486 bases of DNA from Escherichia coli (GTDB taxonomy: Bacteria > Pseudomonadota > Gammaproteobacteria > Enterobacterales > Enterobacteriaceae). Both the position numbers and the translations under genes were made by a program. Positions 1 through 486 of the stretch are shown here, in pieces. Under the pieces are notes generated by a model. That model had not been told where the DNA came from, did no database searches, and was given only the letters and a program-made list of their open reading frames with translations. Where the stretch lies: assembly GCF_003334765.1 (NCBI RefSeq), contig NZ_QOWT01000120.1; one strand, written 5' to 3'. The first letter of the stretch is position 1; every line of letters starts with the position of its first letter.

Positions 1-209
1 TATTTTTCCACGAGAAAGTTCACCGCATCACACAGTGAAATGCCTGCCTCAATATGCTGCTCAATCACACGTTCATCAGCGAACGGTGTGTCATTCAGTG
101 TGAGGCCGTAATGCTGGTCCAGCAGTCGGGTGAGCAGTGTATGCCAGATGGTGACGGGAGACGGGCAGCACGATGCCTCCCGTACGTGTGTGTCAGGTAA
201 TGTTTTCAT
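1..209 (-). CDS. cbtA: CbtA-family type IV toxin (YeeV/YkfI/YpjF-like), N-terminal part; the 3' end of the gene lies beyond position 1
   Basis: Reverse-complement translation from ATG at 209..207 gives an open frame to the window edge: [69 protein letters not shown] (69 codons plus a partial codon). The segment [42 protein letters not shown] matches, from memory, the conserved core of E. coli K-12 YeeV/YpjF. The MKTLP start is characteristic of the family. The symbol denotes the family; which paralog this is cannot be resolved without alignment. Confidence 0.9.
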
Positions 210-215
210 CTTAAG

Positions 216-221
216 TTCTCT
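216..221 (-). promoter_or_regulatory. Possible weak Shine-Dalgarno-like element for the toxin
   Basis: On the minus strand the sequence upstream of the toxin start reads ...CAGTTACAGAGAACTTAAG-ATG. The purine-rich AGAGAA lies about 6-7 nt upstream of the ATG. It is a weak match to the AGGAGG consensus and is called by position only. Confidence 0.3.
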
Positions 222-255
222 GTAACTGGTAGTGCTAAAGGTGAGATATTCGGGG

Positions 256-486
256 TTATGAGGTGGTTGCGGGTGCCAGTGTCGGATAAACAGCCATATA
301 AACGTAACCACAGGAGCCGAGGGTGTCGGCTTCACAGGCCAGCCCCTTCGCATACAGTGTCACGGTATGCTGATGGCGGGGATTCAGTTCACCGCTGGTG
401 AGCATGAGCTCCAGTTGTTTCATCAGCAGCGGAAAGGCCTGGTCCAGGTGGTACGCATCTGCATCGCTGAACAGGCCTCTGATACC
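256..486 (-). CDS. cbeA: CbeA-family type IV antitoxin (YeeU/YfjZ/YafW-like), C-terminal part; the 5' end of the gene lies beyond position 486
   Basis: Reverse-complement translation in frame from 486 down to the TAA stop at 258..256 gives [76 protein letters not shown] (76 residues plus stop, no internal stop). This matches, from memory, the C-terminal half of K-12 YeeU (...[46 protein letters not shown]...). The gene sits directly upstream of the toxin on the same strand, the canonical antitoxin-then-toxin order. Confidence 0.9.

Follow-up and report, generated by a model that had tools for sequence, protein, structure and literature searches.

Escherichia coli K-12 carries three toxin–antitoxin (TA) pairs of one kind, which are described as lying “near the prophage attachment sites” of P4-like elements (PMC5371832): CbtA/CbeA (YeeV/YeeU) in CP4-44, YpjF/YfjZ in CP4-57 at the ssrA site, and YkfI/YafW in CP4-6 at the thrW site. 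The toxin CbtA contacts FtsZ and MreB independently of each other, with Phe65 belonging to the FtsZ surface (Heller et al. 2017, PMC5624674), while K-12 CbeA counters the toxin by stabilising and bundling the FtsZ and MreB filaments and does not bind the toxin itself (PMC5371832).

A further relevant system is GI-pheV, the pheV-tRNA integrated genomic island described in PLoS Genetics in 2024 (PMC11537424). These islands measure 9.7–110 kb and are classed by the type of their intP4 integrase; they carry flu and a “yee module” related to CP4-44, and their boundary was set “before the kps locus”. The right attachment site, attR, is given in Table 1 of that paper as TTCGATTCCGAGTCCGG-CACCA for strains 536, APEC O1, S88, ED1a, H10407, 55989 and others. 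Many GI-pheV lack attR and are shorter, so that the distal end of the island can evidently be lost (PMC11537424).

Here we analyse a stretch of 486 nucleotides of E. coli DNA (hereafter, the window) together with the genomic surroundings of its identical and nearly identical copies. The evidence leaves us highly confident that the window covers the junction between the two genes of a type IV TA pair, cbeA-cbtA, located in the yee module at the attR end of a mosaic GI-pheV island that has a P4-type integrase and occupies the 3′ end of pheV.

The cbeA-cbtA junction and its yee-module neighbours

The window comprises parts of two genes and the spacer between them:

1..209, minus strand: cbtA-family toxin gene, 5′ part (codons 1–69 of 125; ATG at 209–207)
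210..255, minus strand: cbeA-cbtA intergenic spacer (46 nt; the core of a divergence hotspot)
256..486, minus strand: cbeA antitoxin gene, 3′ part (last 76 codons of 124; TAA stop at 258–256)

Translation of the minus strand gives 69 stop-free N-terminal residues of the toxin (209→1) and the 76 C-terminal residues of CbeA followed by its stop (486→256). The two genes are co-oriented with cbeA upstream, and the cbeA stop precedes the toxin ATG by 46 nt on the same strand. Both genes run beyond the window, the toxin gene by 169 nt past position 1 and cbeA by 144 nt past position 486. The full-length proteins were taken from genomic sites that are 100% identical to the window; the toxin fragment is an exact substring of WP_000854692.1, and the antitoxin fragment of WP_001605875.1. 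When full-length, the toxin matches the Pfam family CbtA_toxin (PF06755) with an E-value of 5.5e-63 over model positions 1–112 of 112, and the antitoxin matches CbeA_antitoxin (PF06154) with an E-value of 6.9e-54 over positions 1–100 of 101. The antitoxin also matches the solved structures 2INW (E 3.6e-79) and 2H28, YeeU (E 2.3e-78), whereas the structure search returned no relative of the toxin among solved structures. Phe65 of the toxin is kept (window 15–17, minus strand), and residue 15 is Cys (window 165–167, minus strand). The remaining small open reading frames of the window are antisense or out-of-frame pieces within cbeA and cbtA.

Other collections added little to this picture. Among NCBIfam models, the TA and DUF proteins had no family match at E ≤ 0.001, RadC alone being matched; the PADLOC defence models gave no match for the TA pair or its immediate neighbours; and Rfam placed no RNA family in or adjoining the TA pair, its sole match being IsrC (IS102) upstream of the Ag43 gene.

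Comparison with the three K-12 pairs identifies CbtA/CbeA as the closest. The toxin is 89.5% identical in amino acids to K-12 CbtA, 65% to YpjF and 59% to YkfI, and the antitoxin is 95.7% identical to K-12 CbeA, 68% to YfjZ and 64% to YafW. We therefore rejected YpjF/YfjZ, at 65% and 68%, as the closest K-12 pair. The initial annotation had spoken of a “CP4-44/CP4-57/CP4-6-like” block; of these three labels the CP4-44 type stands, and the CP4-57 and CP4-6 types fall away. [quoted passage not shown] Given the 89.5% identity to K-12 CbtA and the conserved Phe65, we infer that this allele, too, would show toxicity through FtsZ and MreB and produce lemon-shaped cells.

Since 486 bases cannot show what flanks them, we read the flanks in genomes that carry the window. 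Six sites with 100% identity were opened (H1, H2, H3, H6, H11 and H14; strains ECCWS199, CREC-544, D8, FDAARGOS_1261, ST3 and GF43), along with two at 99.8% (H25 and H29; strains YD786 and CPF6), and all eight agreed. At each of them the minus strand reads, in order, DUF932, antirestriction, RadC/JAB, DUF987, CbeA, CbtA, a DUF5983 pseudogene, DUF957 and DUF4942. Just as the initial annotation had predicted, yeeT-like and yeeS-like genes (DUF987 and RadC) lie past position 486 on the minus strand, and a yeeW-like reading frame (the DUF5983 pseudogene) lies past position 1 on the same strand, in 8 of 8 sites. The predicted Ag43 neighbour was also found: an Ag43/Cah autotransporter gene follows DUF932 in six of the eight sites, being deleted in ECCWS199 and truncated in YD786. 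Amino acid identities of these neighbours to their K-12 counterparts are as follows:

DUF987 protein vs. K-12 YeeT: 97.3%
RadC protein vs. K-12 YeeS: 98.0%
DUF5983 fragment vs. K-12 YeeW: 83.6%
Ag43 vs. K-12 Flu: 81.9%

At all eight sites the YeeW-like DUF5983 gene is annotated as a pseudogene truncated at its C-terminus (19659–19835, minus strand, in L001, the ECCWS199 locus), and it overlaps the toxin stop by 4 nt, the same as yeeW and cbtA do in K-12. Past Ag43, a YeeP-like GTPase gene is present in CREC-544, D8, FDAARGOS_1261 and ST3, which are all four loci whose flank is long enough. The Rfam match to IS102 (IsrC sRNA; 68 bits; locus L002, 26064–26300, minus strand) lies between the GTPase and Ag43 genes, a placement that equals the yeeP-isrC-flu arrangement of K-12 CP4-44.

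Two side observations concern this neighbourhood. The YeeP-like GTPase has weak PADLOC matches to LeoBC (2.8e-08) and LeoA (2e-04), and a gene for a dynamin-family protein lies a few kb deeper in the island (L002 26417–27289 and 31239–33551 for this GTPase/dynamin observation); together they may hint at a defence-related role. DUF4942 is the gene of the island closest to attR (L001 18486–19328, minus strand); its product has a match (3.7e-15) to a PHROG family annotated as DNA methyltransferase, and the gene shares the block with an ArdB/KlcA-like antirestriction gene.

The pheV integration site and the nature of the element

The integrase and tRNA expected by the initial annotation are both present. 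Beyond the block, ECCWS199 has a truncated tyrosine integrase gene and then tRNA-Phe(GAA), the pheV gene, which ARAGORN places at L001 24111–24186, with yqgA and speC farther out. The integrase fragment retains Arm-DNA-bind_3 (1.6e-29), Phage_int_M (4.6e-27) and the start of the catalytic Phage_integrase domain. CREC-544, with the same pheV/yqgA context, has a full-length integrase of 420 aa encoded 197 nt from pheV, and its island measures about 39.6 kb. The integrase is only 37% identical to K-12 IntA.

The att-type direct repeats that had been anticipated were found as well: the element is bounded by the 23-nt 3′ end of pheV and by a copy matching it at 22 of 23 positions. The left site, attL, is the last 23 nt of the tRNA gene, TTCGATTCCGAGTCCGGGCACCA. 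A search for copies of the pheV 3′ end located attR, TTCGATTCCGAGTCCGG-CACCA, at L001 18354–18375, in the same orientation as pheV and comprising 22 of the last 23 bases of the tRNA. As a control, none of 100 shuffles matched with up to 3 mismatches allowed. The distance from window position 1 to attR is 1,625 nt; D8 and GF43 carry a G→T variant of the site.

The DNA beyond attR, CTAATTCTTAAGAACCCGCCCACAAGGCGGGTTTTTGCTTTTGGATCT, is verbatim the sequence downstream of pheV in K-12 (the pheV terminator), and in YD786 and CPF6 this K-12-identical DNA runs on into yghD. K-12 MG1655 itself represents the empty site, yqgA-pheV-yghD, where yghD lies 149 nt from pheV with no insert. Since the flank of the repeat is K-12 pheV-downstream DNA and the K-12 site is empty, we conclude that attL, within pheV, and attR mark the two ends of the element. 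GI-pheV is best explained as an insertion at the 3′ end of pheV, the tRNA-Phe gene, carried out by a tyrosine integrase of the P4 type.

In the kps-positive strains, identity to K-12 ends after GGATCT, and what comes next is an IS110 remnant with the group 2 capsule cluster; the insertion point of this kps module and its IS110 remnant is 48 nt beyond the CCA end of attR, directly after ...TTTTGGATCT. We considered kps as a part of the island and rejected this, because attR separates DUF4942 from the IS110 remnant and because YD786 and CPF6 are without kps. The kps cluster is a separate adjacent module outside the att-bounded island.

The yee module sits at the end of the island that is far from the integrase, next to attR. 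What lies between varies greatly. The D8 island exceeds 70 kb, its cargo including pap (papG-III), pgt and others, while the ECCWS199 island is a 5,780-bp remnant (L001 18354–24133) that has lost Ag43 and the cargo and has a truncated integrase gene and a truncated DUF932 gene, with the yee block, the TA pair and attR intact. The TA pair may help to retain the distal part of the island. It is consistent with this, though no proof of it, that both the ECCWS199 and the CP4-44 remnants keep the yee block after truncation or loss of the integrase; the idea loses force through the many GI-pheV that are reported to lack attR (PMC11537424).

Does such an element deserve the name of a prophage? The initial annotation had left the choice between a cryptic prophage and an integrative island, and the names of CP4-44, CP4-57 and CP4-6 imply the former, that is, a true but degraded P4-like prophage with the TA pair as phage cargo. 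The integrase indeed has the P4-type Arm-DNA-bind_3 architecture, the larger islands contain genes for an AlpA-like HTH protein, a YagK/YfjJ-domain protein and an “inovirus-type Gp2” protein, and an origin of the island by bacteriophage integration has been speculated upon (PMC11537424). Several block proteins also belong to PHROG families (antirestriction, 9.5e-64; DUF932, 3.5e-130; DUF987, 1.1e-37), but this membership reflects the mining of prophage regions and not virion biology. The annotation of the stretches examined, more than 200 kb in total, contains no genes for capsid, tail, terminase or lysis proteins and none of the P4 sid/delta/psu type. The window matches just one of 50,697 phage records, an unannotated 3.2-kb fragment at 93.7% identity, and the cargo consists of virulence and fitness genes neighbouring the capsule locus (pap, pgt, Ag43). 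A true prophage is, in our judgement, very unlikely. The island half of the earlier alternative holds and the prophage half does not, given the absence of annotated structural genes and the single phage record: “integrative genomic island with a P4-type integrase” is accurate, and “cryptic prophage” is a K-12 naming tradition.

The window had further been proposed as a marker of horizontally acquired DNA, and this is borne out by the att repeats, the integrase, the empty site and the variable content at one site. It is this structural evidence, and not composition, that indicates horizontal origin. The GC check against core genes suggested at the outset failed to separate the two: the GC content of the block is 0.52–0.56 and that of the right-hand core genes 0.48–0.55, so that GC as a sign of foreign origin was set aside as uninformative, the block resembling the neighbouring core genes. 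Only kps region 2 is GC-deviant, at 0.29–0.38.

To place the window among E. coli genomes, it was compared by megablast with 5,426 complete ones. The window family was matched in 4,911 of them at 13,315 places, with a median of 3 per genome. The family is near-universal in E. coli and not a rare acquisition. The whole block is nearly as widespread as the TA pair: a 2,064-bp query from DUF957 to RadC (L001 19413–21476) was covered by at least 80% in 4,712 of the 5,426 genomes, vs. 4,687 for the window alone. At the level of exact alleles, among the matches listed, 24 records are 100% identical to the window and 31 are at least 99% identical, vs. 7 records at that level over the 2,064-bp block; moreover, the DUF987 and RadC protein accessions vary between genomes that share an identical TA window. 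The scarcity of block matches at 99% or more and the differing accessions indicate that the neighbours have been reassorted independently.

The same survey bears on whether the window might come from a plasmid-borne or other non-island copy of the cbeA-cbtA family. Copies of this kind exist: in the complete E. coli genomes, 6 of the 13,315 places are on plasmids (the other 13,309 are chromosomal), and 17 of 72,556 PLSDB records match. None of these 17, however, reaches 99% identity, the best matches having 96.0% across 87% of the window and 95.3% across its full length, and several of the matching PLSDB “plasmids” are 0.8–4.9 Mb long and are probably mislabelled chromosomes. All 24 of the listed 100% matches are chromosome-sized (4.68–5.71 Mb), and every one of the eight sites examined lies within GI-pheV. 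We regard a non-island source as extremely improbable, and a plasmid location is in practice excluded. Neither of the findings that would have spoken against the initial annotation was made: the yee neighbours, the integrase and the att repeats are there, and a plasmid backbone is not. The window is best read as part of GI-pheV.

The divergence hotspot and toxin residue 15

Divergence from the K-12 cbeA-cbtA region is concentrated in window positions 129–280, a hotspot that takes in the final 8 codons of the antitoxin, the spacer and codons 1–27 of the toxin. Nucleotide identity to K-12 changes along the window as follows:

281–486, cbeA body: 92.7%
256–280, cbeA 3′ end: 48.0%
210–255, spacer: 47.8% (unrelated in sequence)
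129–209, first 27 toxin codons: 69.1%
1–128, cbtA body: 96.1%

Because of this hotspot, many megablast matches came in two pieces covering 87% of the window. At the protein level, 12 of the 13 toxin substitutions relative to K-12 CbtA fall in residues 6–27, Arg15→Cys among them, vs. one difference in residues 28–124. Judged from the alignment, the pattern points to a mosaic or recombinant allele.

The substitution at residue 15 has a counterpart in published mutants. In K-12 CbtA, R15C abolishes the binding of MreB and leaves that of FtsZ intact, giving filaments and not lemon-shaped cells, while F65S abolishes the CbtA–FtsZ contact (PMC5624674). We rejected the reading of R15C as an FtsZ-binding lesion, since that paper assigns R15C to MreB and F65S to FtsZ. 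By analogy with the K-12 mutant, Cys15 might weaken the MreB arm of the mechanism in this allele. Cys15 is the natural residue of YpjF and YkfI, which still affect elongation, and C15R is without effect in both (PMC5624674). A more far-reaching proposal is that the allele would be a natural recombinant whose toxin could be an FtsZ-only, filamenting CbtA variant, and that the hotspot could reflect a diversifying exchange of specificity, for the target or in regulation, among the paralogues, of which a genome has 3–12; this proposal, drawn from sequence comparison, we consider unlikely. Residue 15 and the hotspot make up the sole mildly novel thread of the analysis.

Comparison with the K-12 elements and with GI-pheV

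In practice, the window serves as a reliable marker for the yee module in tRNA-integrated E. coli islands, here GI-pheV, which is associated with pathogenic lineages and adjoins the group 2 capsule (kps) locus. Its 486 bases sufficed to predict correctly the gene order, the strand, Ag43, the integrase, the tRNA and the repeats. Two cautions follow for such work: GC fails here as a test of foreign origin, and the “prophage” label is historical and not descriptive. Beyond correct annotation the importance of the result is small; the initial observation is confirmed, and the finding is already known and ordinary.

Among the K-12 elements, CP4-44 (YeeV/YeeU) is the nearest relative. It shares with the element studied here the order yeeS-yeeT-cbeA-cbtA-yeeW, the 4-nt overlap of the toxin stop with the yeeW start, Ag43 and IsrC upstream, and the position of the TA pair at the end away from the integrase; according to the K-12 annotation, the pair is likewise distal in both CP4-44 and CP4-57. 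In contrast, CP4-44 is situated between cobU and tmaR, no longer has an integrase and adjoins no tRNA, and it carries YeeR where the GI-pheV element has DUF932 and an antirestriction gene. The cbeA-cbtA spacer is 46 nt here vs. 88 nt in CP4-44, a length reported in PMC5371832 with which the K-12 coordinates agree. The two also differ in the first 27 toxin residues and the antitoxin C-terminus, including residue 15, which is Cys here and Arg in K-12.

CP4-57 and CP4-6 are more distant. Their pairs, YpjF/YfjZ and YkfI/YafW, belong to the same Pfam families, their toxins have Cys15, and genes for a GTPase, DUF932, antirestriction, RadC and DUF987 proteins lie upstream. They differ in their lower identity (59–65% for the toxins and 64–68% for the antitoxins), in a 20-nt spacer, in shorter proteins and in their sites of integration.

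The correspondence with GI-pheV, known also as PAI V of strain 536, extends to the pheV site, the attR string, the domain type of the integrase beside the tRNA, the flu and yee modules, the variable size and the location of kps just outside the boundary. No categorical difference was seen, the sizes here being 5.8 kb (ECCWS199), about 39.6 kb (CREC-544) and more than 70 kb (D8). Taken together, these comparisons allow us to conclude that the element is the already described GI-pheV and not a K-12 CP4 element.
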